Notes: generated by a model from the letters alone, not told the origin. Positions 3,400 to 53,159 are shown, counted from the stretch's first letter. The stretch: DNA of 64,000 nucleotides from Raillietiella orientalis (GCA_036172245.1 JAYWIR010000044.1:496001-560000); one strand, 5' to 3'. Program-made: numbers and translations.

Positions 3400-5500
3400 T
3401 GTTAGGCAAACCTAAAAAGGGGGGGAGGGGGGCATCGAGCATCCGGCAGAACTGTCCACGCACGCGCACATCGTACCAAAGGTTAAAGTCGGCATCGGTC
3501 TTGAAGGGAAGGCCTCTTGCGTCGGCATAGCCGCATGCAAACACGATCCGGGCGCTCGGCCAATTCGGATTCAGTAGGACTACCAGCCCTAGTGTTGCTT
3601 CCAAAAGCCAACCTGGAGCTCAGACCTGGAGCGGGTTTCGCGAAGAGAAGGAAGTGCCATTAGCCGCCAGTCAGCCATGTCGCTACTTAAAGCGAATTCA
3701 ACAACTCCAAAGCGCAGTCGGTGGGTGGAATGCCCACCAAAGTGTTGTTGCGGGGGTTTGTTCTGCTGAGTCCGTACCCGTGCCGAGGCGGCTTGGTTGC
3801 GATCCACTGTCTTCGGATGCCCTCGGATCTTTACATGGCATCTCCACCATCCCCCACGGATAGAAAGTTTCTCTGAAGAAAGAAGATTCGTAGGCATAGT
3901 GCAGCAATATGAATCCTGGTTCGGCTACTGAAGGAAGGGGTGCTCAAAGCAACGTTGTGTCTACCGCTGCTGAACGAGTCCTTATGAAGGGAAGATGTAT
4001 GATTATAATGCACCCAGTGCAACAGATTTTGCTGTGCTATTTTCCCGAATGCGGGTACACGACATGTGGAACTCTGTCACTGTCTCAGACTGAAGACATC
4101 ATCGACCACATGAAAGAATTCCATGGATTGGAGAATATCTTGGTCAAATTTCAGTGCCGTCATTGCCATATTTGTGTTTTTACTGAAGAGATCCTTGACC
4201 ATGTGTGTGCTCCAACGAAAGTTACTTTCTTCCGTGATCCAAAGACGCAATCCGTATTCAAATCTGCGTCCGCTGAGCCTGGTTGTGCGGACGCGCTTGG
4301 TCCATACAAAGGCTTTCTGAAACACACGGTTCACGACCGAGAAGAATCGAATCCCTTTCAACAAGGGGAAAAGGCCCTCTTTAATGAAAGATGCTCAGAC
4401 CATGGTGGTCCGGGGAACTCGCGATGGAGTGAATGGGCGCAGCCGACGGAGAAAGCTCACGCGGAAGCTAAGATGGAATCTGAAGGACCAACGGATTTGC
4501 CACGGAGACACAAAGGCTTCTTTGAAGAGCTCGATTCCATTTTAGAGAGGGTGGTGTGCGACGAGCTTAACATCCCCGTAAAACCCAAGCTTTAAAGGTT
4601 AAACACCAGGAAAGTTTCCTTCCCAACGTGGGTCTCCTGCAGGTGAAAGACGGGATCGACAAAGAACCGTTCGACGATGTGGATGAGATGCTTTGACTGA
4701 ATGGAGTCCAGTAGAGAAGTTGACTTTTCTAAAATAAAGCGCGACTGAGTGCACGGAAGCAAAATTCCTCTTACCAGGGACTGGGGCAAGATGGGATGAC
4801 GATCATTGGATCGCCTCCAAATCATCAATTATCCCTGGAATGCGCACACTCCCATGCGTAGGACTTGGGAATTGTGCCGGCAATGAGAAATTCTCCTGCC
4901 TAGGAGAAGCAGGATCTGATGTGGTTCACTTGGACGCCGCGTCAGGTGACAAAAATCATCGCCTCTCGAGGGCTTCAAGTTCCTAGGAGGTGAGGGTACC
5001 TGCTTTATTGAATTAGGAAGTGGAGGACTTGCGTGGAACAGAGGAAAACATCTTTACAACCTGTCATTCTCTCCCATCGCTTTTTTTTTTTTCTGGCATG
5101 AGAGGTTCAATCTATATAGAATTACTTTGAAAATTTTCCGTTCAGGTTCGCCATAGTAGGCACATTTTTTGTTGGGTGTTCTGGGAGACTCCTTCATGCA
5201 AATCGCAACCGCATTGAGCGAAGGAGACAACCGGAAGGCTCCTCAGTTTGTAGAATTAGAACAGCGAGTTCTTCAGCTCCGGCAGTCGGAACTTCTTTTT
5301 CGGAATTCCTGGACTCCATACGGATCTCGTAAGCACTTGAGCGTCATTCGTTGGCAGGCAGGCAGTGAGATGAGCGCCACCCTCCGTGGAAATTCCATTT
5401 TCTGTGATCATCTACGCTGGAGTGTCACTCCGAACTTGATGTCTTCTGCAGCTGCCATTTGGAATACGATGTGCAAATCACCTCTCACTTGGCGATCGCA
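3400..5500 (+). mobile_element. RLE retrotransposon-derived unit 1 (5' leader, ZF ORF, decayed downstream body)
   Basis: Leader and downstream DNA align with units 2-4, e.g. gcgaattcaacaactccaaagcgcagtcggt and gagtgcacggaagcaaaattc. Confidence 0.6.
3909..4595 (+). CDS. Zinc-finger protein copy 1 (228 aa), derived from the N-terminus of a NeSL/Utopia-like retrotransposon
   Basis: Uninterrupted ATG ORF. Finger 1 C-x4-C-x18-H-x4-H (CYFPEC...HMKEFH), finger 2 C-x2-C...H-x-C (CRHC...HVC), finger 3 degenerate; PTDLP at the position of the paralogs' PxDLS. Aligns with the ORFs at 18306 and 25335. Confidence 0.65.
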   Translation: MNPGSATEGRGAQSNVVSTAAERVLMKGRCMIIMHPVQQILLCYFPECGYTTCGTLSLSQTEDIIDHMKEFHGLENILVKFQCRHCHICVFTEEILDHVCAPTKVTFFRDPKTQSVFKSASAEPGCADALGPYKGFLKHTVHDREESNPFQQGEKALFNERCSDHGGPGNSRWSEWAQPTEKAHAEAKMESEGPTDLPRRHKGFFEELDSILERVVCDELNIPVKPKL

Positions 5501-6961
5501 TGCAAAGATGCAACACGGTTCCGAGATCTAGAGGGGACACTTTCCGGGATGCAGTTTCAGGACCTGGAAGCGCAATGACGCATCCGACATCCGACTTCGC
5601 TGGACGTTGCAGTGCAAGTTAGCTCGATGTCTCGAAATGAGCACCAGGCGTCGAACTTCCGGGTCTCAGGCGCGAAGGTTGCAGTGGTCTGGCCTGCTCC
5701 CAAAACGAAGCTCTCGCGTAGGACTGGATGCTCCGTTCTACATCTCTCCGCCTCATCTCATGAATGGTAGAGGTGTTGGAAGTAGAAAATTCGCATCTTC
5801 TGAATTTTTTTCATGCATTTCAAGTACAGACTTCGTTCTAGAACAGGCAAAACAGATAACATGAAGAGTGGACAGAAGATGCCACCTGATCCACTGTTGG
5901 ATTGCTCTTGAAGCAGCTTCCGTTGAAGTGGGAGCATCCACATCCGATTCATCAAGGCAGCAAAGCCACTGAGAGGAAGAAACAGTGCTACCGGATACGC
6001 TGAAGAAGAGGGGCCTTGAAAAGAGTGTCGTTCTCTAGAGTGGACCGGCTGCTAACCAGAAGTACTCCACGAAGAATAGGATTCTCAGTTCTGTTGCTTG
6101 CGAGTTGATCTGCATTTCTTGCAGGGTTGCGATTCACTCTTGTAGCCTGCGTGGCAGGAAGCTTTTCGAAGACTTGGAGCAACCTTTTCCCCTTCCTCTT
6201 TTGTGCATTTCCTTTTTTTCTGGAACCCTCCCGTTGATCCTCGCTGCCCTTCCTTTCCGCCGAACTAAGAGTCGGCGTTTCATTCCTCCCTCTTGGACTC
6301 GTGCAATGGTAAAATCGATGACCTACCTTGTCTGTGCATTTTCTCATCTTCGGAGAGTCAGCATCCAGGATTCAGCGGATGGCAGAGGAGCGCGCCGAGT
6401 TTGAGCAGAAGACGTGACCACAGGAGAACCAACCCACAGTCCTACCACAGTATGGAACAATGCGAGAACATCCCTGAGGTGGAAAAGAAATAAACATAGA
6501 TGGTTTCGTAAGAAACACAGAGGAATGTTTCCGGGACACCTTTGGATTAATCACCTCCGTAGAAGCCTTCCCATCTGAATCAGGAAGAGGTGGTCGACGC
6601 CACGGAAATGCAGCTGGCTTTCCTTAGTGATTGGGGAAAAAGGAATGATCACGCAGCCTCCACGATTATCTTTGACACTTCCGGTGAGCAAACCAGTTTG
6701 CCAGTTCCATCTCTGCCTGCACCATCCATCCGAGGTAAGCAGCACAACATGCGAGAACACGGAAGAGCATTGCACGCATAAATCCCATGCAGAATTTCCT
6801 CCAAAGTGAAATCGGGGGACGCAGAAGCAGACATCGCGCTTCTGCACCGAGTCCATCGCTGTGTTCAGCTCTGCTCTTCTTAATGATCTGTCTCAGCGCA
6901 AGGGGATAAGAATGGTCGTTCCGGTGTGGCGCGCTCTTTGCAGAGCGCCTCTGACGCGCTC

Positions 6962-7072
6962 GGAAGTGTCCCATAAAGAAGAGGGGCCGAACACAACGAC
7001 GTCACAGTGTCCCTCTCAGCATGTGATGTTCGTGTACTGGAGAGAGCCACAGAGTCCAGGGACTCCGAAAAC
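6962..7072. repeat. Donor of a ~108-bp inverted duplication
   Basis: Reverse complement of 8539-8646 with two substitutions and a small indel. Confidence 0.9.
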
Positions 7073-7792
7073 CAATCGCTGATGTCTAAAGAATCCATTG
7101 CTCTAATTTTACAAACCGTGAAGCATTACGGGTGTCTCTTTCGTCCAACGCGATTGCGATTCGCATTGGACCTCCTGGATTGGGACACCATGCTCATGAG
7201 GAAGACCTCCCAGAACAAAGATGTCCAGCTACGGCGGATGCGAACAAGAGATTGTTGAAAGTGACTCTGGACGCTCTGAAGGAGAGGGAAAAGCGACGGA
7301 GAAAACAGGAAGACGGCAAGGATGGCGAGGATGCCGCCATCTTGTTCCATGTAAGCTACCGATGAACGGAGCCCATACTTCTTCCCCTTCCTTGGAATTT
7401 TCAGCTCCTTGAGATCCCGAGGGAAACCATGCTTTTCGACCTGACTCGTTGTTGAAGTGATCTCATCGTGTGGTTTCTCGAGGCAGATTTACTTTCTTGC
7501 ACGCGCGGAAGTGCATTCAGCGTTTCAAGACCTCATTTGGGCACCATCCCGAATGGTCACTCCATCCTGGTGGGCACATTTCTTGGCACGTGCAATTTCG
7601 TTCTGCGTACTCTATTCCTCTTTATTTCAGTAGAGTTGACGCCCTTCACGCAGTCGAAACATTTCTTTGTCTTCATCAATCGGTTCTTCACCAATTCGCT
7701 CTCTCAATTCTGAGGAGCGCACACTGAAAGACGAACTTTCCCGGAACTTTTCATTTACGGCAGGTCATGCACAGAACTGCCTCCCTCATCGC

Positions 7793-8417
7793 TCATTTGA
7801 AACGCCTCGAGCAGCCTACGGATGTCCGTGACAAATACAAAGGTTATTCCCGTGTTATGCCCCATTAGGTGTTGACGTGTCTGGTTCCCGATCTTTGATG
7901 TGGGAATGCGTCCATTCCGCAGTTTGCGAGCATTGATCGCCATCGGGATTTTTGCACAGTTCCACACCGTTGAGGAGATCTTCCCGTTGTTGCTTAGCTG
8001 CAAAGATCTCATTCCGGTGCCATCTGCAGTGCTTCTCCAAAGGCCACCTCGTGCTGAATTCTTTCCAGCAGCCATGCCAATCACATAGAAACGGAAGTTC
8101 GCCTTGCGTCGCGAGATAAGTTTTGGGTAAATGTGGACCTTCATTTGGCTTGTGGGGAATGTAAGCTTCCTAAAATAACAGACTCGTTACGAACGCGCCA
8201 CATAAATTTCACCAGGACCTTCTGCATTGCTTGGAATTTTATCGTGCCCTCCATGATATTTTTAACCTTCGATAATTGCTTTACAAGAGGATGCCGCGTA
8301 TTCGCAACTGGGCAAAGCAACACACCAAGATCCGGTGCAATGGGTACGTAAAAGTCACATAATTTTCTTCAACAAAAATACTTGGAGCAGTAGCAGGACT
8401 GTTACACCAGGATTCAC
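7793..8417 (-). pseudogene. Zinc-finger family copy 2, pseudogene
   Basis: GTG in place of ATG, frameshifts and stops. Recognisable pieces: YPLHRILVCCFA, ILVKF-like QKVLVKFMWRVR, intact finger 3 CDWHGCWKEFSTRWPLEKHCRWH and C-terminus GITRE*PLYLSRTSVGCSRRFK*. Confidence 0.75.
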
Positions 8418-8538
8418 ACTGCTGCACCGCGCCTACCAATTTTCAATCTTCGGAGAAAGTTTCTATGGATGGAGGGATCGTCGAAGTGCCATCTAAAGAT
8501 CAGACGACACCCGAAGACAATGGACCGCAAGGTCGGGT

Positions 8539-8646
8539 GTTTTCGGAGTCCCTGGACTCTGTGGCTCTCTCCAGTACACGATCACATGCTGAGAGGGACA
8601 CTGTCACGTCGTTGTGTTCGGCCTCTCTTCTTTATGGGACACTTCC
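8539..8646. repeat. ~108-bp insertion in the leader of unit 2, inverted copy of 6962-7072
   Basis: Absent from the homologous leaders of units 1, 3 and 4. Confidence 0.85.
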
Positions 8647-9105
8647 TAGCGTCCCAGCACGGAGACGGACTCTGCAGAACAAACCCCTGCAACACCTCTG
8701 TGGGTGAAACACTCACCGACTGCGCTTTGGAGTTGCTGAAGTCGCATCGGGCAACGAGCTGACTAATTGGCGGGAAAGGCGCTTCCTACTCTTCGTGGGA
8801 CCCTAACCGTCTGGCTCTAGGTTGGTTTTCGGCAGCACCTTTTGGACTGTGGGTCCTCCTGAATTTTGGTCAACCGAGAACCCAGCTAGTGCCTCTTTTC
8901 GCACGTGTTGGGAATCGTAGGAAGAGGCTTCCAGCCTGAGCTCTATCAACCTGTGGTAGGGTTTGAGAGTGCGGCGAATGAGCCTTCCATATGTTAGGTG
9001 TCACTCTGTGTAGGAGCGCCCAAGAGCTCTGTCTATCGATGACCAATAAAGATTAAGAGCAAACAGCTATTCTGCGTACGACTGAGGAACGAGATTGCAG
9101 ATTTG

Positions 9106-9950
9106 CACCCGGTGATGCTGGGACGCTTATTTTACAGGAAAATAAAATGAACAAACAAGAGGGAAGCGCAGCCGTGGAGACCACCATTTCCTAGAAAGAC
9201 GTTCCATGGAAGTTCAAGGAGGGGAATCCACCGACACTCTCGACTGGGTTCCTGAACATCCGGAGCGAGGAGATTTGGAACAAAAAAACAAAAATACATT
9301 GGGAGGCGGGAGCAGGGTCTTTGGCTTTTCCCATTTCTTCATGAAACACCGGGAAAAGTCCTGAACGGGCGGGCGTGGGGTGTAAAAAAAAGGGTTGGGC
9401 CAAGCGTCACCGGCAATGCCCGGGCCTTTTCAGAAACGGCGCAGGATGTCGGCGATCTCCTTCCTCACTTCCTCGTCTAGGTGGTGCCACCTGGCAGCCA
9501 TCCTCATGCAGACAGATGCGATGTTGCTGGGAGCATCCGTTCTCCGCTCCAGCAAATGGCGGACCGTAACGATGGCACGGTTGCAACACGTCATCACTAC
9601 CGCGGCGCCTGTCGTGGCTCCACCTCTCGCGAAGAATCGCCTTAGCAATTCCACCGCAGTGTCTCCAGTGTTCAGAAGCGCAGAGTTCAGCCTCCGCCAA
9701 AGCTCCTGGAGGGCACTACAGTTCAACGAGAGGTTCGGGAACGACTCGGTCGCTGCGCACCTCAAGCAGTTCGAGGACACGGCGCTCTCGGAAATCCGGT
9801 TCCTGAGCTGGTTGCACTGGTAGTTCCAATGCAGAAATAGCAGGATGTCCTATTTCCACTTCAGTGGGAACACGCAAGAGCTTGGGCACCCACAGGCAAG
9901 GAACAAGTTGCTCACGAACGAGAGTGGCCACACACTGGAGCACTCAATGC
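9106..9950 (-). mobile_element. L1/Tx1-type LINE 3' fragment (subfamily A)
   Basis: ORF2 C-terminal Cys motif CLRCAATESFPNLSLNC, end ...EIADILRRF*, then a pyrimidine-rich 3' UTR and degenerate AATAAG-hairpin end. Confidence 0.7.
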
Positions 9951-11195
9951 GAAAGAGCTGAAGAAGTACAGGTCAAGATTGCAGGAAAAGGAAAAAAAAA
10001 ATCTGTGGATGGATCCAGCACTCCACTGGGTGGGGTTAGGAAAGGAGGGCTTGGGATAGATATTGAGGTGCGATGAAGGAAAGAGCAGCTCACCAAAGGG
10101 AATATGTCCACGAAACTGGCAGCGGGAAAGGCGGAGAGCGATGTTTTCGGTGTGTACAGACGGCACGCATGGGAAGGATGTATCCAAATGATTCTGCCGC
10201 TTCGGGGGGCCGGTTACGCAGCGAGGGGTCGCCACTTGGGCGGGCAAAGGTTGCTACGGAGTGTCCTTGCACCCACCGGCTGTGTTCGAAGCCAATCTCG
10301 GACTCCAGAGTCGCAGAGCACGCGGTTGGTAGCGGCGAGGCGGGGGCTGGGAGTACGTTAGATGCGATGACATATCACAGGAAGAACACCAAAGGAGGCC
10401 GAAACCTATGTGCAACCAGAAGAACCCAGAGATCAGCACTTGCGAGTCAGAAGACACGATGCCAAGAAAGCAACAGAATAGGGGGACAATAAGCGCCCAG
10501 AAACCGGAAAGGATACAAAGAGTCCCTCGTGTAATACATTACTAAATTGTAAATTTGAAAAATAAAAAAGTTCCTTGACAAAAATTCAAGAAAGAAGAGG
10601 GAGGAATGGAGATCTACGAAAAATCGAACCGCGACTCGTTTCTGCTATTGGCAGCGAGGCAACCCTTGACCCCATCGGCGACGCGGTCAGGACTACAGAG
10701 GTAGTGCAGCATGACGAACCCTCCCTTACTCGTCACGAAAGGAGCCGAGAAGATGCCTCCTTATACGAGGTGGTCGAGGGGCGAGAAGAAACTCTTCAAA
10801 CTCTCGAGGAAGGCGTTTAAGAGTGCAGCAGCCGACCATCAGCGAGAGCACCCTGTTCTGATACGAAGCTTCGAACCGCCGACTGAGAACGAGCACATCT
10901 GCAGATTTTCGTTGAGCAAGCCAGAAGCCCCCATACCCTCAGGAAGAGGATGCAGTGGGTGCCTCTTGACACGCTCCACTGCAAAGCCGGATGCCACTCT
11001 GCCGTTTTCCCGGAACCCAGATAACCAAAGTCGCGCGTGACCTTCTGGAACTTGACGAGCCACGAGCGGAAGGCAAAAGACGAGACGAAGAGGCCACCCT
11101 GCACCCCTTCGGTCCCCCTCAGCTACAAGAAATTCAAAATCGAAAAGCGGGGGACGCCTGGGAGATCAAGGTGATCGCAGGTGGTAAGCTGTTTC

Positions 11196-11609
11196 TCACC
11201 CGGGTGCGCCGGGGCGTTTATTGCTAAACTATTCAAGAACAGAATTTCCGGACAAAGGACTCAGAAAAAACGAAGGGGGGATCCCCGACACGCAGGTCGG
11301 TACACCGAAAGGGAGGGGACCACAAATACGCACATAAAAAATAGAAATAAAGGTATGGGGAGGGGAGGGGACAGAGGTCTTTGGTTTTGGCCGTTCCTTT
11401 CCTTCAGAACCGGCTATGGATGCCGGTGATCTCTCTCCTAACGTTCTCTGGAAGATGGGCCCACTCGGTAGCCGACATCATGTTCTCATCGGCTATTCCG
11501 GTGGCCTGAGGACGAGTCGCCTGCTTCTCCAGCTCTCGGTGGGCCTTGTCGATGGCGCGGGTGCAACAGACCGTTGCAACGACAGCACCCAAGGACAGGC
11601 CGCCTGGTT
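11196..11609 (-). mobile_element. L1/Tx1-type LINE, short 3' fragment in tandem with the next copy
   Basis: Diverged duplicate of 11611-12040, encoding GAVVATVCCT.AIDKAHRELEK...EITGIHSRF. Confidence 0.8.
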
Positions 11610-11610
11610 A

Positions 11611-13560
11611 TCACCCGGGTGCGCCGGGGCGTTTATTAAAAACTATCCGGGAACAGAGTGCCTGGACAAAGGGGAAGACAAGAGACGAAGGGGGTGGGAT
11701 CCCCGACACGCAGGTCGGTATGCCGAAAGTCCGGAACGGGAGGGAGGGGACCACAAATACACTACTATAGAAAAATAAAAAGAAAAATATGGAGGGCAGG
11801 GGACAGGGGTCTTTGGTTCGGCCGTTCCTTCCTTTCAGAACCGGCGATGGATGCCGGCGATCTCTCTCCTTACGCCCTGTGGCAGATGGGCCCACTCGGC
11901 AGCCGACGACATGTTCGCGCTGGCTAATCCGGTGGGCTGACGAACGATGGCCAGCTTCTCCAACTCTCGGTGGGCCTTGTCGATGGCGCTGGTGCAACAG
12001 ACCGTTGCAACGACAGCACCTAAAGACAGGCCGCCTGGTGTGAAGAAGCGGCGCATCAAGTCCCTCGCGGTGTCTCCCTGGTGCAGGAGAGCTGAGGCCA
12101 GCCTCCGCCAAAGTCCTTGGAGGGCACCGCAGTCCAGGAGCAGGTGCGGGAGCGTTTCCACTTCCCCGCACCGCTTACAGTTTGGGGAGACAACTCCCCC
12201 GGAAACACGGTTCGCCCGCTGGTTGGAGTGAAAACCCCAATGCACCAGCAAGATGACGTCCTGCTTCCAAGAAAGGGGGAACACAGAAGTGTTCAAACAG
12301 GTGGGAGGGACCACAAGTTCTTCGAAGGGCACACTTAAGTGTTTACTCCACCGAAGTTCCTTCGGAACGTGGCGAGGCGTGGAGGCGTCTGCCAGCTCGC
12401 AAGTCCTCCAGCCGCCTATGGGTCGTGTTGCTCCTGCGATGGTGCAGGCGACCTCCCATCTCGCCGGTTGGCAGCTGTCATCTCTTGCCCTGAGGGCTGA
12501 CAGCGCGTCGGCGAGGGGCGTGACGGCCAGGCGAGTCCACTTCTCCTGGCTGTTGCAGACCTCATCCACCGTACAGGTGGATGAGGTGCAGCAGCAGAAG
12601 CTCCGACTCCTGCCGCTTGAAAGGAAGGGTGCAGTTCTTCAGGTGCTCTGGGAGGCACCCGGGCTATTCATGGGGATCTCAGTAGCTCATTCCAGCTTAC
12701 AAGTCCCTCTGGTAGGAGACTTGGGATCGCAGCATCCATCGGCTGATCCGTGGTCGTGGTCGAATCATCTAGCGTACTGCGCCTGGAGATGATTTCACAG
12801 CAGAAGGCTTCTCATCTCGCTGGTACGTTGCTGTCAATTTGCTCCTTCAGGCTGGGTAGCGCCGCTGCAAGGGAAGTTCTCTCCGTCCACGCACACTTGG
12901 TGGGACGCACGATGATCTCCATCTCCTGGAGCGAGTTTTCGGGAGTTCCCCTTGAAGAACTACTATTCGTCAATTTGCGTTTGCACACTCCCAAGTTCCC
13001 TTTGATGTTCATGCACGAGATGGCGCTGTTTTTTTCACTTCCAGTGCAACAACCAGTGTAGGCGCTTGCTGTCCGTAGGAGCCAAGACCCCAGTCCGTTT
13101 GAGATGCGAGGCGATTGAATTGTTCTAGCATCTGCTTTTGGACTGAGATGTTCCTGAAAACCGAGAGGGAGCGCGTCTGCAACACTTTTGCGTCCGGAGA
13201 TCACCAAGGACTCGCTGCAGCGAACTTACAGCAGGTGCCACGATTGCAACCATCATCACCACCCGCCATGAGTTGGAGTGTCGCGATAACCACACTATAG
13301 CAACGATCCTGATGAAGTAAGAGTGGCGGAGGCAGCGAAAGAACGTCGCCCGCATGGCAGCCGCCAACATGAAATGGATGGCGATTTGCCTTCATCTCGA
13401 AGAAATACAGTCAGAGATAGCCGGCATTCTGTACTAAGCAAGAAGTATAGGACGCTTTCAGAGACTCCTGTCGTAACTTCCCCTGGATTTATGAATTTAC
13501 TACCCTAATTCCTTCCGCTTTGGACTTCTCCTGTAAAATAGGTGATTGTCCAGCTGGGTT
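11611..13560 (-). mobile_element. L1/Tx1-type LINE, 5'-truncated, ORF2 C-terminal part
   Basis: ORF 11835-12569 has the zf-RVT/CCHC motif CKRCGEVETLPHLLLDC; decayed RT thumb upstream (SPRISNGLG); ends AATAAACGCCCCGGCGCACCCGGGTGA. Confidence 0.75.
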
Positions 13561-13744
13561 CGGCTGCGCTTGGTGGACTTCACACTCGAGGTAGAATTCT
13601 CCTGTTTGCAACTTTCCTCCTTGCTGTGTTCCAGGTGCTCGTAGATGTCAGTTTCTGGTAACCAATACAAGTAGAAAGTTCACTGATCTTTCACTGAAAA
13701 TTGAACGTATTATTTTTTGCTGGGAATTAGAATGCATTTAGATA

Positions 13745-15100: not shown

Positions 15101-15114
15101 ATCACTATCCATCA

Positions 15115-18100
15115 TCAGGCGCTAAGGTTCCACTGGAAGAGGATTTTCTCTTCTGGCGGAGCAAAATTTATCTGCACGATACCAAGATCCGTGCTCAGCT
15201 TCACGGTAGGAAGTCAGCGCAAAGCAGGAATGCCAGAAGGGCCTTCGAGAGGCCTCAATCGGAGAGAGCGTGCGCGTGAAGACGGCCACGAGCGACAAAA
15301 GCGGATTAGGGATCACGTGCGAAACCACCCTCGCTTCGCACGTGCGCCCACTCAAGCAGCACGCGAGAGAACGCGGAGACTGCAGCCTGCACCACCTTCC
15401 ATTTTATTCTCAATGCTTCCGGTTACCTCCCTGTTCTCCTTCGACACGGCACGTGGAGCAAGAGGAAGCAGCGCCGGTCGAAGAGCGCATCCTTCCCGAG
15501 AACATAGCCGAAAGCAACTTCACAGCTTCTTACCTTCGCGATCTGGTCAGCCCTGCGCATCTCCCGCCTCCGGTTTCGTCACCCGTCACTCACTTTCGCC
15601 AAGGATTCGGTCCTCATCCAGCATCCCGTCATGCGAGGGCACGGTGCTCGGAAGAAAGCCGTGCGATGCGGGCCGCGTGAGTCAGCCAAGGTCGTCCACC
15701 GGGGCGCAAAGCTCCACTTGCGCTTCGACGTCTTGCAGGGTCCGAACAACAGGCGCGCGCTTCCCATGGAGAAGAAGCACCAGAAGTGGATTACCCACGT
15801 CAGAAGAACCTCGGCAAGGACCATTCCCTCGACGACGGTTCGTCTGGAGGGTTCACTTGAAATGGATTCAATCGAACTTGAGACACACGGCGACGCAAAG
15901 TGACCCCAAGCGCGAGAAACGCCTCCGCGATGCCTTTTTTGGCACCATGCATTTCACGGAGCACGCGAGACTCGCATTCGATTTCCGGGTGCAAGGAAAA
16001 ACTTCCGCTGCGAGGTCAGCAGATGGTCTGTCCGCGAGGTCGCTGCACCGCAGCTGCCGATCCTTCGGCATTTCCTTCGAAAGAAGAGCCAACTTCTTCC
16101 GCGGAGCGCACGTGCGACCGGGAAAGCCGTGCGCTTTCCCAACCAGCTGCATCCGGACCAAAGTCGGCATTCAGCTCGTGGTATCCTTGGGGATGCCGTT
16201 TTCGGAGGAATTTTGGTAGCGCCTTGCCATCCCTCGTGGCACCGAGCAGCAGCGTGCGTTGCATGTCTTGCGCTCTGCTGCCTCCCGGAGTCAGGAAGAG
16301 GAGTCGGATCTGCAAAGCCATTTCCGAGAAACCTATCGTCCCGAGTGCGACGTCGAGACAGCACGCCATGCTGTCGCACGTGTGCCGGTGACAGGAAAGA
16401 AGGGCGCAGGCAGGAGAGATTCGTCAGGTTTCCCCGGAAACCGCGGATTCGGCAGTGTCGTGGGACAACGCGGATCTCGGACGGATTCAGGAGCGCAGCA
16501 GATCCGCCGCCAAGGGACACCAGCCTCCGCTGTTCGCTCTTCCCGCACAGACGAGTCGTCGAGATGCGTGCCAAGCAACGCGCCGCGACGGAAACTCCGA
16601 TGCCACCTGCAAGCGATGGAAACGCGCGCGTTCAGCATCATCTAGCGGCGGAGCTCGTGAACTCAAGCGGTGGCACCGTCGGGCGGTTCGATTGCACTTA
16701 GCAGATGGCACCGCACGTTCCGGAAGAGGAACTCGAGATGCAGACGAGTAGCAACCAATTCCTTTGCTAGCAGATGCCCATCTCCCGTTACGAGGGATGC
16801 TGCGAGTTCAAACCGTGTCAGAAGAGTGTCAGCTCCCCTTTGCCTCCGGATAGACTCGAAACTCATTTCAAACTGTGGTGTTTCGGCGGTGTTTCTTCCA
16901 TGTCCGGTTTGATTAAGGACAATAGCACAGGGAGAGATTCGCCGCACGGGAGTGGAATGCGGGCTTCCAGGTGAGGAAAAGGCCGCCGAGCTGGTGGCTG
17001 CTCTGCAGCCTCGACGGCGCCACCCACACGCAGCGGAGCTTCTGCAGCCGTAGCGAAGAAGAAGAAACTCCCGTTGCCTACGCACGCGGTTTCTTTCAGT
17101 GCGAGAGGAATTTCGCGCTTCGAGCGTTGCCACGAGGAAACCAAGGTGTAACGAACGCTCGAAGATCGGAACGCACAGTGGTGCGCGCAACTCAAAACGG
17201 TCCCTGATTGCGTTTACTTGGGACAGTCTGCACGGGCGTTGAAACGGGAGGACAATTTCCACGGGAGACGCGTGCAGGTTTGCATGAGCTAATCAGTAGG
17301 TAAGCAGCCTGCAGGTGTCTCCGCAACCGGGGAGGGTGCACTCTTCTGCGGAAGGCGTGCATGAAGGAGTGCATCGGACATCTTAAGGATCGACATTCTG
17401 CTTATCCAGCTGGCAGTTCCCTGTCCCCTGGAAGGGGTCTCGCAGTTCTTGTGAAAGTGAGGAGACCGCGTGCAAAAGTGTCGTCGTTCCCTGCCCACGG
17501 GTGATGTTTCGGCGACCTGGGGGTACTCGTTAGTCGGCTGTGCATTGCCGTCGACTCCTCTAGATGTCGCAGCGATCGGAGATTGGAGGAGATCGCTGAC
17601 TTTGGTTGCCTTCTGGTTGCCGTGGGCACCAAGCATAGCAACACGGTTGATTGGGCTCTTAGACGTTGCTCCCTTGAAACATGGAAGAAGCATCGTTCGA
17701 GAGGCGCGGAATGCTCAGAAATCCCTGCGAACGTCGTCCGGCTTGCAGTTTTGGCTGCTCGTCTGGGAACGCAGTCTCATCGGTCGTGCGATGGGACGAT
17801 TTTTGGAAGTGATTCCGTAACCTACTGTGGAAGGAAAAGATGCTGAAGCGACTCGGAATGCTGCCTTCCGCACCATGTGAGCCCTTCAGTGGTTCAACAA
17901 GAAGGGCAGGTGCCCCAGCTCTTTTGTAATTTCCGAAGGGGCCACGCTTGGTGAGCAAATGATCCACGCAAGAGCTCGCTTTCTCAGGGCAAAGCACTTG
18001 GCGCCAGCATCGAACTCCCTTCTTGTACGCACAGAAGTGCATTCAACTGGTTTGGGCACCATCCAAAATCATCCTCCCATCTTCCTCAGCAGGATCCTTG

Positions 18101-18293
18101 GCCCGTGAAATTTGCTTTCCGTGCACTTTGATCGCTGTTTATTGTGGTGAGGTCAAATCGAAAGATTTCTTTCTCGTCATGGGTCGGGTTTTCCTTGTGC
18201 CGTTCTCACAGTTCTGAGGAATCCACGGAGGTCTGGGATTGTGCGGCAGAAATTCCACATCGTCACTGATGAAGCATCGCCGCGCAGAATCGC
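15115..18293. repeat. Left arm of a 3.18-kb near-perfect inverted repeat
   Basis: Reverse complement of 25947-29126. The mirrored ORF sets are identical apart from about eight visible substitutions or indels. Confidence 0.97.
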
Positions 18294-18305
18294 GTCCTCC
18301 ATCAC

Positions 18306-18911
18306 TTATTTTGAGCTTGCAAAGCACTTCGTAGATGTCCCTGACAGGTCCAAGGGCTGTTCGGATGTCACCCCAGTTGCGGATCGAGCAGTCTGTGCTG
18401 ACTTCGGCAATTCGGGACTTTGCTGGCTCGCACCAGAGATGTGTGCGGGCTGCTCTTCACAGGGAGCGCCTTCTTCACTTGCCTGGGGAGCACACTGAAC
18501 TTTTGCATGAATCTTCTTGTGTGTGACTAGACCGTTTTTCGTTGCAAAGACCTCCGTGCAACCAGGAGAGTCGCACGGAAAGTGAAGAAAGACTTCCTTC
18601 AACTGGGTGTAGGCAAAAGCGTTTGGTTCTGCCTGGCACAACTGCTGGTGGTGGCTCTCTAGCGAAATGCTCAAATGGCAAAAACGGCACACGAAGATTG
18701 CCTGGACATTCTCAATCCTATGGGAGTTTCGCATGTGCTTTTTCATGTCCTGAATGCGCTGGGTCCGATTTTTTGTGGATGTTACGTAACCGCATTCAGG
18801 GAAATGGCAAAGCAAAATCGGATGCACTGGGAACATAAAAATCACATGATTATATTGAAGGTGGACCCGCTCAGCAGTGACAGACACAGCACCCCTTCCT
18901 TCAGTAGCCAT
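18306..18911 (-). CDS. Zinc-finger protein copy 3 (201 aa) with C-terminal PLDLS motif
   Basis: Intact ATG ORF. CHFPEC-x18-HMRNSH, CRFC...HHQQLC and a canonical C2H2 finger CDSPGC-x12-HKKIH; low-complexity linker; EQPLDLS near the C-terminus. Confidence 0.78.
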   Translation of the reverse strand: MATEGRGAVSVTAERVHLQYNHVIFMFPVHPILLCHFPECGYVTSTKNRTQRIQDMKKHMRNSHRIENVQAIFVCRFCHLSISLESHHQQLCQAEPNAFAYTQLKEVFLHFPCDSPGCTEVFATKNGLVTHKKIHAKVQCAPQASEEGAPCEEQPAHISGASQQSPELPKSAQTARSATGVTSEQPLDLSGTSTKCFASSK

Positions 18912-19430
18912 GTCAGGATTTTTACACTATGCCTACCAATCTTCTTTCAGCAGAGAAACTTTCTATCCTTGGAGGATAGCCGAAATGCCATCTGAAGATC
19001 AGACGACACCCGAAGACAATGGACCTCAACCCGGGGTTTCAGCACGAAGACCTAGTTGGGCTCAGCAGAACAAATACCGCAGCACCTCTGTGGGCATTCC
19101 ATTCACCGACTGCGCTTTCGAGTTGTTGAATTCGCTTCGGGCAGAGAGGTGGCTAACTGGCGGCAAAGGCACTTCCTTCTCTTCGGGGAACCCGCCGTCT
19201 GAGCTCCGCGTTGGTTTTAGGCTGCACCTTTTGGAGTGTGGGTCCTTCTAAATCCAAATCAACCGAGAACTCAGCTCGTGCTTCTTTTCGCATGTGTTGG
19301 GGCTTGTAGGAAGAGACTTCCAGCCTGAAGTCTTCAACCTCTGTCAGGGTTTGCGAGGGTGGCAGGCGGACTACCAAATGTTAGGTGTCTGTGTTTGTGG
19401 TAGCGACCGGGAGCGCTCTCTATCGATGCA
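18912..19430 (-). promoter_or_regulatory. Conserved ~500-bp leader/promoter region of ZF copy 3
   Basis: Aligns with 8430-9045, 24830-25334 and 3400-3908; ends at a DRE-like CATCGATA (19421-19428). Confidence 0.45.
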
Positions 19431-19439
19431 CAAAAAATG

Positions 19440-20110
19440 TTAGGATAATGACATTCACAGGCATTTCGTGTATGGGGGAGGAATGGACTGAGTATGAAAT
19501 TCGGAGGCCCTCACAAACGATGGAGATCATACACTGGAGCTCTCATTGCGAAAAACTCGAGGACACACAAGCAAAGGTGTTGTAGGAAGAAATAAAAACG
19601 TGGATGCACCATTGGGGGCACACAGGAAACAACAACGTTGGGAAAAAGGGTAGATAAGAAGAACAAACAAGTGGTGTAGTGAGAAAGATGCTTACAAAAT
19701 TGATACTCAGAAAGCCGGCATTTTTGGTCACACTCTCCAAGATGTAACGAGGAAAGAAATTATTCATTTGAAGGACGAGCTGGTATCCTTGTAATCACGA
19801 AGACTTCAGCATGAAGAATCAATCATGTAGTCGGTTCAAAAGCGAAGAGTTCTCCTTTTTCTAGAGCTCTAGGTAAAACAAGACACGAATTCCCATCTTA
19901 GACTGTTCTGAACTGGACACCAAAATGCACCTACTGAGTCACGTGTTGGATTCATCAGAAAGATCTCCATGGGAGGAGATGGAGGTGATTCTATAAAAAG
20001 AACGGCTTGTTTCCAAGATACAGCAGTATGCCCTAAAGGCCTATCGTCTCAAATAGGAAATCGATTATAACGAGGACAAGAAAGCTAACGGACAGCTCAG
20101 TCACAAGTGC
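19440..20110 (+). mobile_element. Possible decayed Gypsy integrase C-terminal fragment
   Basis: Weak remnants RPSQTME (YHPQTNG-like), LNWTPKCTY (P.W.GPY-like) and YALKAYR. Confidence 0.3.
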
Positions 20111-20499
20111 GAAGCTAAAAGGAGTTGAGCGAAAAAAGAACCACCCCTTCGAAGACGCAGCAGAGACACAAAGCAAATGTATCCGGGTTCTCTTCCGGGA
20201 ATGAGAAGTAAAAGAGATTATTGAGATGGAGGTGGGAGGATAGACGATTCAGAAAATTGAATGCACGTAAGCGCACAATGCTCATAAGAAAGAAACACCC
20301 GTTAACATGGGATGATTTCGCTGCCTGAGTGCGCTTCTGCCTCTCGCAGCTGCTGTCAGAAGCCATCGAGGAGATTCAGAGTTCCCGGTTTTCAGTGCTG
20401 AATCCCTGCTTCCCATGAATCATCATTTACTTTTTCATTTGATGTTTCCACACCGACCGCCTTCGTTCCCTTCAGTCTTCGAGTCTTTGGTGCCTAAAG

Positions 20500-23400
20500 G
20501 ATCGGATGCGAGCAAAGGAAACAAAATGGCGCGTGCCCATTCTCGAGTCGGACTTCAGGAGAGCGCCTCCTTCCCTACGGCCACCCGAACTCTCCCTCCT
20601 CCTTCCACAGACAACTGCATGAGCCTTCCCAGACTTCGCCCATGATCTTCAGATTTCTGTCTTCAGCATTGAAAACTCCTACGGCAGCAACGGTTCTGAA
20701 GCACGCGGAAACTCATGCACGCAGCACAGCTCTTGTGCAATCCTTGGTGTTTCATCTTTACCGAGAGCTGCTGCCTGCGTACGCAGGTGTACCAGGATCC
20801 ATCAGACCAAATGCGCGAGAAAGTACCTTCGGGAACGCAGAACGTGAGCATTCAGTCGAGGCCTGCAAAACCACGAAGTCTTGTGCGAAGATGATGGAAT
20901 TTCATCTACCTTCTCGAGTGTGGCTGAAAGAGGAATAGCGGGAAAGCGTTCAGGAACCCACGTTGCGAGGAGCCCGACAGATGAGACGAGTCGACGGTGG
21001 CAACCGTGTAACCGTGTGCTAGAGCACCTGTTTCACCCCATAGTGACCCCGGTCCCAAGAACGCGGGATGCGCTTTCGAAACCTATCGGATGCCCCAGGG
21101 TGAAATGTCCGTTCTTTGCTTGACAAATTGCACCGGGTGCTGCATGCTTGCTGCAGATACACCACTCAGTGTATAGCAGAATCTCCTCCTCGCAGGTGAT
21201 ATGGAATGGGAAGCGTGGACGATATTTCCTCTCTCTTGCAAGAAATCTTTTCCTCTAGACTGCAGCCAGAAGCGAACCGAAGAATTCACAGCTCCTCCAC
21301 AAAGGGAAGCAGTGTGGTCGAGGATGTCCATCCGGAATGAGAATCCTGTTGGAGGTTTGACATCAAGAAGTTCATCCCGCCGACCGGGAGGGCCGCTCAT
21401 CCGACGCCCACCAGTTGCACACGTTCCAAAGCAGCAGCAGCCTCCGAATCAGAGGCTGCTGGAAGATTGGCACCCCGCGCGAGTCGAGGTGGGCACACCG
21501 AGGTTTGTTGCAACGAACGTGAAGGTCTGCCATTCGCACCCCTGCATCGAGCGTGGATGTGCAGCTCCTGCAGTCGTGTCTTCTCCGATCGGTTCGAAGA
21601 TGCAACCACTTCTGGTGCTGTCACGGATCTGGTAGGCACGAATTTCTCACAGGCGGTCCATCGGTGGATGGTGCACGCGACGGAACGGCGGCGCGAAAAG
21701 GGCGTGAAAGTTTGGACTGCTCTTTGTGCTTCTGCTCTTGTCGGCTTCCACCCTCCCGTGATCCAGCACTGCAGGATTGCAACGGGTGGACACCTCGTTC
21801 GCAGTCGGCGAATAGGGGATAGAAGACTCCAGAGGCAGAAGAGGAATTAAGACAACGCAAGTCCTGTGAGGACGCAGCGATGCAACGCAAGATACCTCGA
21901 GGGCGCGTAATACCTGGCCGGAGGAGCATCAGTCTGGACTTCCGAAGAAGGTGGGTCGGGCATTGCATGTCGGGGCGCACGTGAGAGGAAACGAATTCGG
22001 AACTACGAGCGATCCAGCGGAAGCAAACATGTCTTGAATTCAAGAAAGGTTGCCGGGAACGGAAGAAGCCCATGTGTGGGGATAGATGGTTGAAGGTTGC
22101 ATTTGTCTATATGGAGAAGATTGACGTGCCGAGTATGAGAGAGAAGCGTCCATGGAGAACGATGTGGATGGAATTCCAGCAAGTTGGCCATGTGGATGCG
22201 TATCTTCAGCAAACTTGAGTTTTGCTCAGCGAAGGTGAGCCTCCCATCGAAAGGCGGATACTGGAACCACCTAAACAACTGGCTGGAGAAGAATGCGGCA
22301 AAGAATTGAAAGTGCTGAAAAGGATACCAACATCTTCGTGGCTCCGATGCACCCTCGACAGCGCCATCCTGACGTAAGGGGGTTTCTGTAACGGTCTCGA
22401 AAAATAGGAACTCCCAAAGCTTACATACGTGGTTTGTTGCAGCATAAGCGGAATTTGACGCTTCGGGCGTTGCCAAGGGGAAATCGTGTTCGCCATGGTG
22501 CACGTAACTCAACTGTTCCTGTTCGATTTGCGTTGGGACACTCTGCGCGCGCTATGAAACGTCAGGAAAATTTCGGGAGATGATGTGGAAGTAGTCATGA
22601 GCTAATCTTCAGGGAAGAACTAGGTGTTTTCGCAACCGATGAGGATGCACTCGTCTGTTGGTCATGCCGCGGGCGGCAGAATCTCCACTTGATGGAGAAA
22701 CTCTCAAGAAGTCCATGCAGTTAAAAATTGTTCGGCTACTTCTTTTCTACTGTCTCCTATAATGTCTGTAGTTTGCAAGGAGAAAGAGTGTAAAGTTCTG
22801 TGATGTGGTCCTAGAAGCCGGTGCTCTCAGTGCAGCATGCCAAGCAGATGCCATAAGTTCGTTGTTTTTCACGAAGATGCGTGTGAACGAAGTTCTCGGG
22901 AATTCCGATGCACTGCTGACAGATTCTACCATTCCGCGTGGTAGAGCCCACCGTACACGAAGAGAGGGTCGCACTGTGCGTGATGGGTTTCCTACTTGCC
23001 ACGATGTCTGTTTCATTTTCAGGAATCGAGGAGTGGCCCCTTTCGGCCACTAGAGGTATTTTCAAGCCTTAAAGATGCCTCATTATGCCAAAGAATACGT
23101 GAAGCAAGCGCCGTCAGGAAAAGTGACAATGATGATGATGTCCAAAGGCCGTGGTAGTTGTCACACTTCCATTAAGAGCACCTGAGAATTGGAACTAAGT
23201 CCGTTCTTTTCGCTTGCGGCTGGACCATGGACGCTCAGTGCCGAGAACGATCCGATGGTCAGCAAGCCGTTCGTGAAGCCGTGCTTTCCATTCTCGCAGT
23301 TCACAACTGTGAAGTTGCAGACGTCCGATAGCCAAGTAATTCCGGATCGTGATCCAAATCGCTGTTCCCACCAGTGCTCCTCTACTTGTACAGTTGCGTA

Positions 23401-23500
23401 GACACCGCAACGTGTCGTCCGCGCAACAACTTTCAGTCGAGGGCGGATCCCGTAAACTTCAAGTCGATCGCAAACCTCATAGTTTTCATCCACATTTCCA
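20500..23500 (-). mobile_element. Decayed NeSL/Utopia-like RLE retrotransposon
   Basis: Minus-strand remnants in RT-to-RLE order: KNGLSSNSQ, GSTTRNGRICQQC, TISPWQR (LAPWQR) and CRSC...LHVRC. Confidence 0.55.
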
Positions 23501-23699
23501 TGGCGACTTGAAAATTAGGATAGCCCCTTAGAAATAGGACGAATAGGGGACTCGACAAAAGAGGTAGAACGCTCCTCAAAGAGCAAAGATTAGTGCTTGC
23601 TCGAAGATTGGTCGCTTTCTTACTTTGATTTCTTTGTCAAGGGAGAAAAGCTGTTATTCGCTATCTTTATTCACTTCAACCGGTAAATTGCCGTGAGGT

Positions 23700-24800
23700 T
23701 TCTGTTGAAGAAGTAGCTGACGTCCTACCTCAGTTGTTCTCCTCGAAAGCAGAGGCGCTCTTGAAGCATCTTTCCACCCCCTCACGATCTATCTTAAGAA
23801 GTAGGGGGAAACCTTCCCCATGCAGGCGCGGGTTCCATCTCTTTACTAGAATACGACGAGACTGGAAAGGGACTGCCTTCCCAGACGAGCAGCCAAGACA
23901 TAGCAAGACAGAGGACGCTGGGAAGGATTTCTGAGCATTCCGTGTCTCTAGAATGGGGATTAGGTGTTTAAGGAGGGCAGCTGCTTTCTGGCTGTCATCT
24001 CTTTGGATCTGACAGCGCTCCCAGTGGCACACACAAACCCTCGCCATACGAGGCAAACAAGGGCGGCTACCTTGCACGCTGATGCGAAGTTGCCAGAATT
24101 CCCATCAATGGAACTTTGCAAGATATTCGTTTCCCATGGAGTCGACCCCCGAGACGCAGGTGCCCTCACGAATCACAAAATGAGTGTCTTCGGTCGCAGA
24201 CGCACAGATCGTCGCCGGCCACAAGGTGCGAGTGAAAAAGACGAGGAGGCAATTCGTCTCTCTATTAGCTTCAGCCACCGCAGCCAGCCCGGCATCCCTG
24301 GGGAAAATGTTACAACCACCGTAGAGGGGTCACATCACGCATTGAATTGCATCGAAGATTGGTCCACTTTTGCAACTCAGGAGGATAGATCTGCTTCGAG
24401 ATTCGTTCATGAACGATGAAGAACGTGCTCGCGATGCAACGAATTGCTATTATAGCTTAAAAGAGGTCTGCATAAGACATTGCCTCAATTGCTAATTGTC
24501 GCAGTGTGTGGCATTCTCTCCAATACATTCAGGGATGCCTGGACCGACTCATCGGATGAAAACACACATGGTAGGCGGCACCAAAGTTGCAAATTTCCAC
24601 TCGAGTGGACAACGTTTTCGTCCACATCTACGAATGTGTAACAAGAAAAGGTCATCTTGGAGATCAACGTGCATGCTGACCATTTCTGTCTTTTTGATAA
24701 ATCCTTGACCAACCAACGAGCTCTTGTATACGTTCGAACTCATTGGTGGACCCACCAAGTTCGAGATTTTATACTTAGTTCGTTCCTGCGCCATACGCCA
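23700..24800 (+). mobile_element. Decayed RLE retrotransposon RT fragment
   Basis: GRISEHSVSLE followed by LAVISLDLT; 23871-23952 is homologous to 26465-26545. Confidence 0.55.
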
Positions 24801-24829
24801 AATGACCTTTGATGATCCTCACCTTCTTC

Positions 24830-25334
24830 ATTCACCGTTAGAGGGAGCTGTCAGGTGAACCTGAAAGGTTGGTCTCCTGACACCTGGCAGACCCGTCTGC
24901 GCACATGCACGTTGTGCCAAAGTTTCACATCCACAAAAGCTCTCCTTAGGCAGAAAGCCTTTTGCAGGCAGCGTCAACGCACCTATTCGCAAGAGCACGA
25001 GCTGGTTGCCTGGCTGTTCCTCACTCGGAAGGGCTTGCAAATTCATGGATTGAGGCCAAAAGCCAACCTGAAGCTCAGACGGCGGGTTCCCCGGAGAGAA
25101 GGAAGTGACTCCGCCATCGGGTAGCCGCTTCGCCACCCGAAGCAAATTCAACTCCCAAGCGCAGTCGGTCGGTAGTGAAGTCACGGGACCGCTGCGGTAT
25201 TTATTCTGCTTAGCCTGGGCACCCCCGCATGCTAGGGTGCTCGGTTGCGCTCGTTGTCTTCGGGACCTCAATTCCATGGCATTTCGACCACACCCTTGGA
25301 TTCTTCTCACGAAAGTTGGCTAGAATAGTGCAAG
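24830..25334 (+). promoter_or_regulatory. Conserved leader/promoter region of ZF copy 4
   Basis: Homologous to the other three leaders (ccaaaagccaacctg.agctcagac, aattcaac..ccaagcgcagtcggt). Confidence 0.45.
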
Positions 25335-25934
25335 ATGAGGAATCCTGAATTGGAAATGGCGGAACGGACGATTCTGGAAGGGAATCATTTGGTTCTCATG
25401 TTCCCAGTGCACCCGGTTTTGTTATGCTGCTTCACTGATTGCGATTATGGGACGCGTTCGCAAACACGTCTCGAGCGTATTCGCGATATCAGGAGGCACT
25501 TAAGAGAGTACCATGAGATTCAGAATGCTCGGACCACCTTCGTGTGCCGCAGGTGCAAGACGGATGTTCTTTTAGACTCCAATTACCATCTTTTCTGTGA
25601 TCCAGAAGAAACAACTGTTTTCAGCAATCTGGCCACGGAGGCCGAACTTGTTTATCAGTGCGATTGGCCCGGATGTACCGACTTGTATTGCTCAAGTAGC
25701 GGATTGCGTCGTCACAAGAGCTGGCACCTAAGCAGTCGGAGCTATGGTGAGATGCGAGTGGGAGGCGCTTCTCGTAATGTGAACCGTCAGCAGCCCGATA
25801 ATGACCGACCAGGATGCTCCCGATACCAAGAGTCACAAAACAACGATAACCAGGCCACCACCCATTCCGACTCAAGCGACCTGTCCGACCAGCCCATGGA
25901 TTTGTCACAAAGCAGTACGACAAGTTCACAATGA
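25335..25934 (+). CDS. Zinc-finger protein copy 4 (199 aa) with C-terminal PMDLS motif
   Basis: Intact ATG ORF. CCFTDC-x18-HLREYH, CRRC-x10-HLFC and C2H2 finger CDWPGC-x12-HKSWH; DQPMDLS near the C-terminus. Confidence 0.78.
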   Translation: MRNPELEMAERTILEGNHLVLMFPVHPVLLCCFTDCDYGTRSQTRLERIRDIRRHLREYHEIQNARTTFVCRRCKTDVLLDSNYHLFCDPEETTVFSNLATEAELVYQCDWPGCTDLYCSSSGLRRHKSWHLSSRSYGEMRVGGASRNVNRQQPDNDRPGCSRYQESQNNDNQATTHSDSSDLSDQPMDLSQSSTTSSQ

Positions 25935-25946
25935 GCAATGTCAGGG

Positions 25947-28900: not shown

Positions 28901-29126
28901 TGCGAAGCGAGGGTGGTTTCGCACGTGATCCCTAATCCGCTTTTGTCGCTCGTGGCCGTCTTCACGCGCACGCTCTCTCCGATTGAGGCCTCTCGAAGGC
29001 CCTTCTGGCATTCCTGCTTTGCGCTGACTTCCTACCGTGAAGCTGAGCACGGATCTTGGTATCGTGCAGATAAATTTTGCTCCGCCAGAAGAGAAAATCC
29101 TCTTCCAGTGGAACCTTAGCGCCTGA
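25947..29126. repeat. Right arm of the 3.18-kb inverted repeat; decayed RLE-element RT/endonuclease
   Basis: Mirror of 15115-18293. Plus-strand remnants FAGISEHSAPLERC (DG..EH) and ETSPVGRERRHFCTRSP (GV.QGCPLS). Confidence 0.95.
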
Positions 29127-53150: not shown

Positions 53151-53159
53151 CAGTCTCTC

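Follow-up and report, generated by a model that had tools for sequence, protein, structure and literature searches.

R2 retrotransposons of the three-finger type encode proteins that begin with an array of zinc fingers (ZF) in the order ZF3 (CCHH), ZF2 (CCHC), and ZF1 (CCHH), followed by Myb, reverse transcriptase (RT), zinc knuckle, and restriction-like endonuclease (RLE) domains (excerpts of PMC11204384 and PMC7650587). The three-finger array has been described as ancestral for R2 across animals, ZF3 and ZF2 are reported to fold together, and the Myb domain and ZF1 give R2 proteins high-affinity site binding (excerpts of PMC11204384). In Utopia elements, the RT is preceded by one to three N-terminal zinc fingers, and NeSL as well as Utopia-1_TSP carry an Ulp1-type protease (excerpts of PMC4640811). 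Here, we describe a family of small finger proteins in a 64,000-nucleotide (nt) stretch of DNA from Raillietiella orientalis (GCA_036172245.1 JAYWIR010000044.1:496001-560000; hereafter the window), whose finger module probably derives from the N-terminal DNA-binding array of an R2-group (RLE) retrotransposon. We read the locus as a whole as a locally duplicated, RT-less family of R2-derived finger proteins with CtBP docking in copies 3 and 4, a reading to which we assign a probability of roughly 40%.

The original prediction, made from the same DNA, had placed four paralogs here, with three fingers kept in copies 3 and 4 and two in copy 1, and both the positions and the finger counts were confirmed, the latter by ligand patterns. 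Copy 1 (3909-4595, + strand) is an open reading frame (ORF) of 228 amino acids (aa), copy 2 (7793-8417, − strand) is a pseudogene, and copy 3 (18306-18911, −) and copy 4 (25335-25934, +) are open ORFs of 201 and 199 aa, each with three intact fingers. In all three open ORFs, an in-frame stop lies 6-15 nt before the ATG. The fingers of copy 3 (ZF3 18720-18809, ZF2 18636-18689, ZF1 18507-18575, all −) and copy 4 (ZF3 25425-25514, ZF2 25545-25598, ZF1 25659-25727, all +) keep 12 of 12 zinc ligands in the order CCHH-CCHC-CCHH, with the spacing C-x4-C...H-x4-H, then C-x2-C...H...C, then C-x4-C-x12-H-x3-H. In copy 1, ZF3 (4035-4124, +) and ZF2 (4155-4208, +) are intact and the last finger (4269-4334, +) has its first Cys replaced by Ser and an H-x2-H spacing; the ORF of this copy extends beyond the ancestral stop after a 19-nt insertion. 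Copy 2 has GTG in place of the ATG, at least one frameshift, and four in-frame stops in frame with its finger remnants, the last finger being the sole one still readable. When aligned, the three proteins share 27-41% identity with the Cys/His ligands all in register (finger-core identity is 41% between copies 3 and 4 and 32% between copies 3 and 1), and in copies 3 and 4 the ORF ends 66-68 aa past ZF1. The family also includes an N-terminal leader and first-finger remnant at 56596-56667 (+), 58% identical to copy 4 over 24 aa, and a second short N-terminal remnant at 57391-57480 (+), with 86% DNA identity to the former over 58 nt. These two remnants lie approximately 820 nt apart and are without the conserved 5′ flank motif described below.

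A profile of the three window cores, compared by HMMER with 1.84 billion representative proteins at E ≤ 1e-3, matched 110 proteins, most of which were generic multi-finger proteins matched at the last finger only. From these, we chose by eye 19 full-module relatives whose best stretch covered at least two fingers. An RT domain (RVT_1) lies downstream of the module in 4 of these 19, and one of the RT-bearing relatives (P0083) also carries Peptidase_C48, an Ulp1-type protease domain. The named relatives belong to spiders, ticks, and a crayfish, several being labelled R2 pol, and for another RT-bearing relative (P0074) the best solved relatives are the A-clade R2 proteins 9nl2, 9nl3, and 9dou (E ∼1e-56). 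In hhalign, the window profile matched that of 11 relatives with a probability of 99.1% (E 7.9e-19) over 114 columns, in one stretch that comprises an "FP" leader strand and all three fingers, including the CCHC middle finger, and once the relatives are included, the profile also picks up the N-terminal fingers of 9nl2, 9nl3, and 9dou, each as a single stretch (E 7e-5 to 8e-4). The finger order of the window copies is that of the published three-finger, or A-clade, R2 definition (excerpts of PMC11204384 and PMC7650587). An AlphaFold2 (AF2) model of the copy 3 core (mean pLDDT 82.6) has residues 1-73, that is ZF3 and ZF2, as one unit (10-residue block means of pLDDT 87-97), which fits the reported joint folding of R2 ZF3-2, and the last finger as a separate confident unit (pLDDT ∼90). 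In the Protein Atlas, only generic C2H2 clusters were returned (scores 0.91-0.93), and a metagenome scan with the window profile gave 122 pattern matches, of which none was confirmed. The profile matches, the RT-bearing relatives, and the CCHH-CCHC-CCHH order support an origin from RLE/R2-group N-terminal zinc fingers, as had been proposed; within the RLE group, the class is set at "R2-like" only, as Utopia and NeSL were compared by description.

The original prediction further held that degenerate RT/RLE sequence lies downstream of each copy, and this part did not stand. A whole-window Pfam scan of 294 stop-to-stop ORFs of at least 90 aa (E ≤ 0.001; the three finger ORFs were scanned apart) returned no family, RVT_1 included, and nine read-through frames downstream of the copies, with stops written as X (4596-7790 on both strands and 25935-30000 on +; Pfam E ≤ 0.01), returned none either. 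No Myb match was found by Pfam in the finger ORFs or the read-through frames. Similarly, no RT was detected anywhere in the window by tBLASTn with 13 relatives (4 with a Pfam RT domain) or by an unfiltered hidden Markov model (HMM) search of 2247 six-frame fragments with the post-finger parts of the 4 RT-bearing relatives, and this HMM gave no match adjoining any copy. The sole RLE-like sequence in the window is a remnant at 50387-51143 (−), ∼21 kb from the nearest copy, which represents an R2-like C-terminal RLE region spread over three frames (tBLASTn and HMM, E 4e-19). Among PDB entries, it matched at E ≤ 1 only the endonuclease regions of the three A-clade R2 structures (E 0.27-0.4), and it had no match in the protein collections, where longer proteins were searched. 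The PD-motif region of this remnant is readable (D to N), no RT lies upstream of it, and it resembles a 5′-truncated dead insertion. When the copies were compared with the DNA beyond the remnant for a common 3′ end, only chance-level matches of 13-22 nt emerged. Rfam at gathering thresholds had no match in the whole window (no rRNA, snRNA, or other RNA gene), the flanks outside the repeated unit are unrelated between copies, and no repeated target was seen. Given that no RT/RLE remnant lies downstream of any copy, we rejected the notion of a dead element body behind a live head; judged by these searches, the units lack an RT, and the flanks that they have in common are of non-RT sequence.

The repeated unit extends well beyond the coding sequence (CDS). 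A conserved non-coding 5′ flank precedes copy 1 (3236-3908, +; aligned with copy 3 over −673 to −1), copy 2 (8418-9092, −; 76% identical to the copy 3 flank, with an insertion of ∼116 nt at 8539-8651), copy 3 (18912-19576, −), and copy 4 (24735-25334, +; the most diverged, with 58-62% identity to the others). Identity over 600 nt upstream is 58-76% in all six copy pairs, and over 800 nt downstream it is 50-61%, except for copies 3 and 4. In every copy pair, conservation is higher in the 5′ flank than in the CDS, and the flank contains near-invariant blocks, including one of 22 nt with 0-2 changes across the four copies that is found nowhere else in the window. Upstream homology runs to approximately −670, and in copies 1 and 3 further, with insertions, to −1091/−1967. 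A sharp common 5′ boundary at approximately −590 was considered and rejected, as pairwise homology runs to −673 and beyond. Downstream homology runs from +11 to +773 in copies 1 and 2 and from +77 to +299 in copies 2 and 3; copies 2, 3, and 4 can be aligned across their stops, and all four copies have some non-RT downstream sequence in common. The aligned stop and this common sequence indicate that truncation predates the divergence of the copies and support the predicted truncation to a finger-only ORF; the sequence ancestral to all copies thus already had an ORF with this end, followed by non-RT sequence. Candidate explanations for the conservation of the 5′ flank are a constrained promoter or 5′ untranslated region (UTR) and gene conversion. 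Conserved RNA structure was not supported by RNAalifold over ∼300 nt of the 5′ flank in the four copies (covariation +1.56, compensatory pairs 1 of 63), and Rfam at E ≤ 10 over 18800-20300 returned two irrelevant weak matches and no hepatitis delta virus-like ribozyme. A 116-nt segment occurs twice, inverted and with 95% identity, at 6957-7072 (+) and 8539-8651 (−), the latter as the insertion in the copy 2 5′ flank and the former near the end of the copy 2 downstream homology.

Copies 1 and 2 are arranged tail to tail, and copies 3 and 4 head to head. The latter pair is accompanied by an inverted repeat with arms of 3.19 kb, the left (15103-18293) starting ∼13 nt after the copy 3 stop and the right (25947-29138) at about the same distance beyond that of copy 4. 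Over 3193 nt, the arms differ by 8 mismatches and 3 gap positions (99.66% identity), and DNA identity between copies 3 and 4 rises from 55% in the ORFs to this value within ∼15 nt of the stops. The first ∼300 nt of the left arm are homologous to the copy 2 downstream sequence. No protein family was detected in the arms, and a look at internal repeats in an arm and at tandem repeats in the window yielded nothing informative. It is possible that the 3′ flanks underwent recent conversion or duplication, with selection keeping the coding regions different; alternatively, the jump in identity may reflect misassembly.

Constraint on the ORF was examined in several ways. Nei-Gojobori (NG86) ratios of nonsynonymous to synonymous substitution (dN/dS) in the core were 0.42 (copies 3-4), 0.60 (copies 1-3), and 0.53 (copies 1-4), with dS saturated at 1.07-1.30; values of 0.4-0.6 at saturated dS are a rough guide that neither refutes nor proves domestication. 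A simpler and sturdier test was a neutral simulation with random substitutions of at least 0.3 per site, a level lower than the data imply for each lineage (4000 runs per copy, indels ignored), in which the ORF was still open in at most 0.7% of runs per copy; observed open were three of the four. Identity between copies 3 and 4 at codon positions 1/2/3 was 0.60/0.63/0.49 in the core (p = 0.05) and 0.40/0.58/0.32 in the tail (p = 0.011), in a protein-guided alignment that biases this test. The simulation and the retention of ligands support the claim that the ORF and its zinc ligands were maintained beyond neutral expectation. Because truncation is ancestral and the ORF survived saturating divergence, it is likely that the RT-less, finger-only ORF has been under selection for a long time.

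Past the fingers, copies 3 and 4 have low-complexity tails of 66 and 68 aa that contain PLDLS (copy 3, 18342-18356, −) and PMDLS (copy 4, 25893-25907, +), at aligned positions after 50-55 low-complexity residues and near the C-terminus. Such an ending after a low-complexity linker had been predicted, and the two motifs indeed occupy homologous positions. PxDLS is the docking motif for the corepressor CtBP. A degenerate motif, PTDLP, occurs in copy 1 (4488-4502, +), and the corresponding stretch of copy 2, PLYLS, is out of frame with its finger remnants. Tail identity is otherwise 18-28%, the motif forming an island of identity. The pattern P.DL[ST] was found in 3 of the 110 profile-matched proteins (58,134 residues in total); it is thus rare in these relatives and no general property of R2-like N-termini. 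Accessibility of the motif within the tail was judged from composition only; the full-length AF2 model of copy 3, built on a three-sequence alignment, had a mean pLDDT of 38.7, was unusable, and is silent on tail disorder. That copies 3 and 4 recruit CtBP through PxDLS is in our judgement a doubtful prediction.

Under the reading we favor, the parent would have been an A-clade-R2-like (RLE) non-LTR (lacking long terminal repeats) retrotransposon, whose ZF3(CCHH)-ZF2(CCHC)-ZF1(CCHH) array was cut before the Myb, RT, and endonuclease domains. With a short low-complexity tail after it, the detached array would make up a small stand-alone protein, and the family may have spread by inverted or segmental duplication at the DNA level rather than by retrotransposition. 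Local DNA duplication is suggested because six pieces lie within 64 kb without a repeated target and in tail-to-tail and head-to-head pairs. Target-primed reverse transcription yields 5′-truncated copies, not 3′-truncated ones, and retrotransposition seems disfavored because the copies here are 3′-truncated. The products would most likely use their fingers to bind DNA; copies 3 and 4 could also dock CtBP via PLDLS/PMDLS and thereby repress bound sites, and copies 1 and 2 may be decaying members of a birth-and-death family. Possible targets would be the target sites or copies of the parental element type. A more far-reaching version, in which an R2-type head became a stand-alone gene, gained a CtBP motif, and diversified as repressors against RLE retrotransposons or their insertion sites, seems to us distinctly unlikely. 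It would take the fast-changing CDS between conserved or homogenised flanks as an arms-race footprint, and would make the family a non-LTR-derived counterpart of the KRAB zinc finger proteins (KRAB-ZNFs) and the P-element KP repressor.

Several observations weigh against the reading as a domesticated family. CDS nucleotide identity between copies is only 49-55%, lower than in the 5′ flank, so that much of the protein is nearly free to vary, and most of it changes almost at the rate of unconstrained DNA. Maximum likelihood dN/dS values scatter from 0.07 to 1.6 with dS saturated and do not quantify constraint. As 24 of the 3697 stop-free frames in the window reach at least 199 codons, long chance ORFs occur here, so that it is the persistence of homologous open ORFs, and not their length, that carries the argument. 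The complete feature set is present in just two of the six family pieces. No close homologs were found in the protein collections searched (copy 3 against proteins of near and greater length, and the profile of the window cores), and the exact three ORFs are not in a 15-billion-protein collection, so that neither orthologs nor an annotation as genes came to light. The Myb domain, to which R2 proteins owe part of their high-affinity binding, is absent from the copies, and the putative CtBP-docking motif, PxDLS, consists of just five residues and is shared by descent. Finally, none of 297 stop-to-stop ORFs of at least 90 aa reaches a Pfam family at E ≤ 0.001, although GC is 43-58%; with no Pfam-recognisable gene and many other repeats, the window resembles a transposon graveyard and has the look of gene-free, repeat-derived animal DNA.

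The main rival to domestication keeps the ORF within transposon biology, either as the first of two ORFs in an R2-like element yet to be described or as the payload of a trans-mobilised non-autonomous derivative, with copies open through recent lineage activity and not through host use. Such an origin would suit a module that is clearly R2-like, in a repeat-rich, gene-poor window that holds an RLE remnant of the same element type, and a family with broken copies and short fragments whose repeated unit takes in over 600 nt of common 5′ non-coding sequence resembling a 5′ UTR; moreover, non-site-specific R2-like elements are known (excerpts of PMC7650587). However, no RT follows any of the four copies, including in the 3.2-kb arms, which are 99.66% identical and were hence duplicated too recently for an RT to have been lost by decay. 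The sequence downstream of the copies is unlike that 3′ of the RLE remnant, target-primed reverse transcription gives 5′-truncated copies and not 3′-truncated ones, and the occurrence of six pieces within 64 kb, with no repeated target, is better explained by local DNA duplication than by retrotransposition. In families of long interspersed nuclear elements (LINEs), the CDS is typically more conserved than the 5′ flank, the reverse of the pattern seen here. R2 and Utopia families are also described as one-protein elements (excerpts of PMC11204384 and PMC4640811), the term "ORF1" is absent from PMC4640811, PMC7650587, and PMC12247875, as is "two ORFs" from PMC4640811 and PMC12247875, and neither a separate first ORF nor a non-autonomous RT-less form is reported in the excerpts of the R2/Utopia literature examined. 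We consider this rival rather unlikely, and two others less likely still.

One of these regards the copies as relics of old R2-like 5′ ends that were duplicated along with neighboring DNA and are now decaying, their frames, ligands, and PxDLS having no present function. The dead copy 2, the loss of one finger and of the motif in copy 1, the two further fragments, the fairly common long chance ORFs (24 of at least 199 codons in a GC-rich window), and dN/dS values that are poorly estimated and not far below 1 all agree with decay. Decay accounts poorly for three open ORFs in four when neutral ORFs stay open so rarely in simulation, for 12 ligand positions kept in copies 3 and 4 at 41% core identity, or for an island of identity at the motif in otherwise 18-28% identical tails, and codon position 3 differs most between these copies, with the alignment bias noted above; we regard relics as improbable. 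The other holds that the copies form a host C2H2 cluster, lineage-specific but otherwise ordinary, that does not descend from a transposon; the likeness to R2 N-termini would then reflect generic finger similarity or reverse capture. Besides the generic, last-finger-only matches among the 110 proteins, the only Pfam match in the three finger ORFs was a sub-threshold zf-C2H2, AEBP2 also matches the profile over three fingers, and Foldseek with the core model found no PDB match at E ≤ 1e-3 and ranked WT1 and other host finger proteins first, at E ≥ 1.1e-2. Against this stand the R2-like match that spans the 114-column module in one stretch, FP leader and CCHC finger included, the RT in 4 of the 19 full-module relatives, and a VIA structural second look in which three A-clade R2 N-termini were the top 3 of 271 chains, though with Z of only 3.3-3.7, a weak hint. 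The three-finger array is described as ancestral for R2 across animals (excerpts of PMC11204384), whereas the window family is without close relatives anywhere searched; we regard a host cluster of this kind as very improbable.

The second half of the window has other interspersed repeats, moderately diverged (68-77%), at 31331-31534, 41972-42139, 52891-53159, and 62814-63016, and a further pair at 41416-41669 and 58620-58876; these are unrelated to the finger family and have no recognisable protein domain. A tandem duplication of ∼430 nt with 82% identity occupies 11189-11608 and 11604-12039.

Among known systems, the A-clade R2 proteins (9nl2, 9nl3, 9dou) and the R2-like arrays of spiders, ticks, and a crayfish share with the window copies the CCHH, CCHC, CCHH order and the FP leader strand, and in copy 3 ZF3 and ZF2 are predicted to form one unit, as reported for R2 (excerpts of PMC11204384). 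In contrast to A-clade R2, the window ORFs are without Myb, RT, zinc knuckle, and endonuclease, and no 28S ribosomal DNA flanks were found in the window by Rfam. Compared with the R2-like relatives, the copies are only 20-30% identical to any of them, the C-x4-C of their last finger is C-x2-C in most relatives, and the near-invariant first-finger Trp of the relatives is absent. If the proteins are expressed and bind DNA, they could serve as a natural experiment on target recognition by the ZF3-ZF2 of A-clade R2, which is poorly understood, a question relevant to R2-based gene-insertion tools. A likeness to Utopia and NeSL is seen in the Ulp1-type protease domain of the RT-bearing relative P0083 (excerpts of PMC4640811), whereas no U2 snRNA or spliced-leader gene, by Rfam, lies in the window.

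Domestication of DNA-binding domains is well documented in the case of DNA transposons and retroviral genes. In the domestication literature searched, including PMC12247875, we found no report of a host gene from an R2-group finger head. If the window proteins are expressed and bind DNA, site-specific LINEs could also seed transcription factor families; if this is only a repeat family, it would still be an unusual RT-less, 5′-end-only R2-like derivative. As clustered, fast-diverging C2H2 paralogs with birth-and-death, the copies resemble the KRAB-ZNFs and their ZAD counterparts (ZAD-ZNFs). With these, and with CtBP-recruiting finger repressors such as ZNF516 and ZNF366, they also have in common a DNA-binding array joined to a corepressor-docking element, here putative. 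Unlike KRAB-ZNFs and ZAD-ZNFs, the window proteins have only three fingers, of the retrotransposon type, and their putative docking element is a five-residue linear motif; Pfam detected no KRAB, ZAD, SCAN, or BTB domain in the three finger ORFs (E ≤ 1). The P-element KP and 66-kDa repressors are transposon DNA-binding proteins in truncated form and repress the family from which they derive. They come from internally deleted or alternatively spliced DNA transposons, whereas the parent of the window family would be a non-LTR retrotransposon, and the window copies are highly diverged with no parental element linked. Nevertheless, the likeness to these repressors lies in the form of the protein, the DNA-binding head of an element without its catalytic part, which could occupy the binding sites of the element itself.

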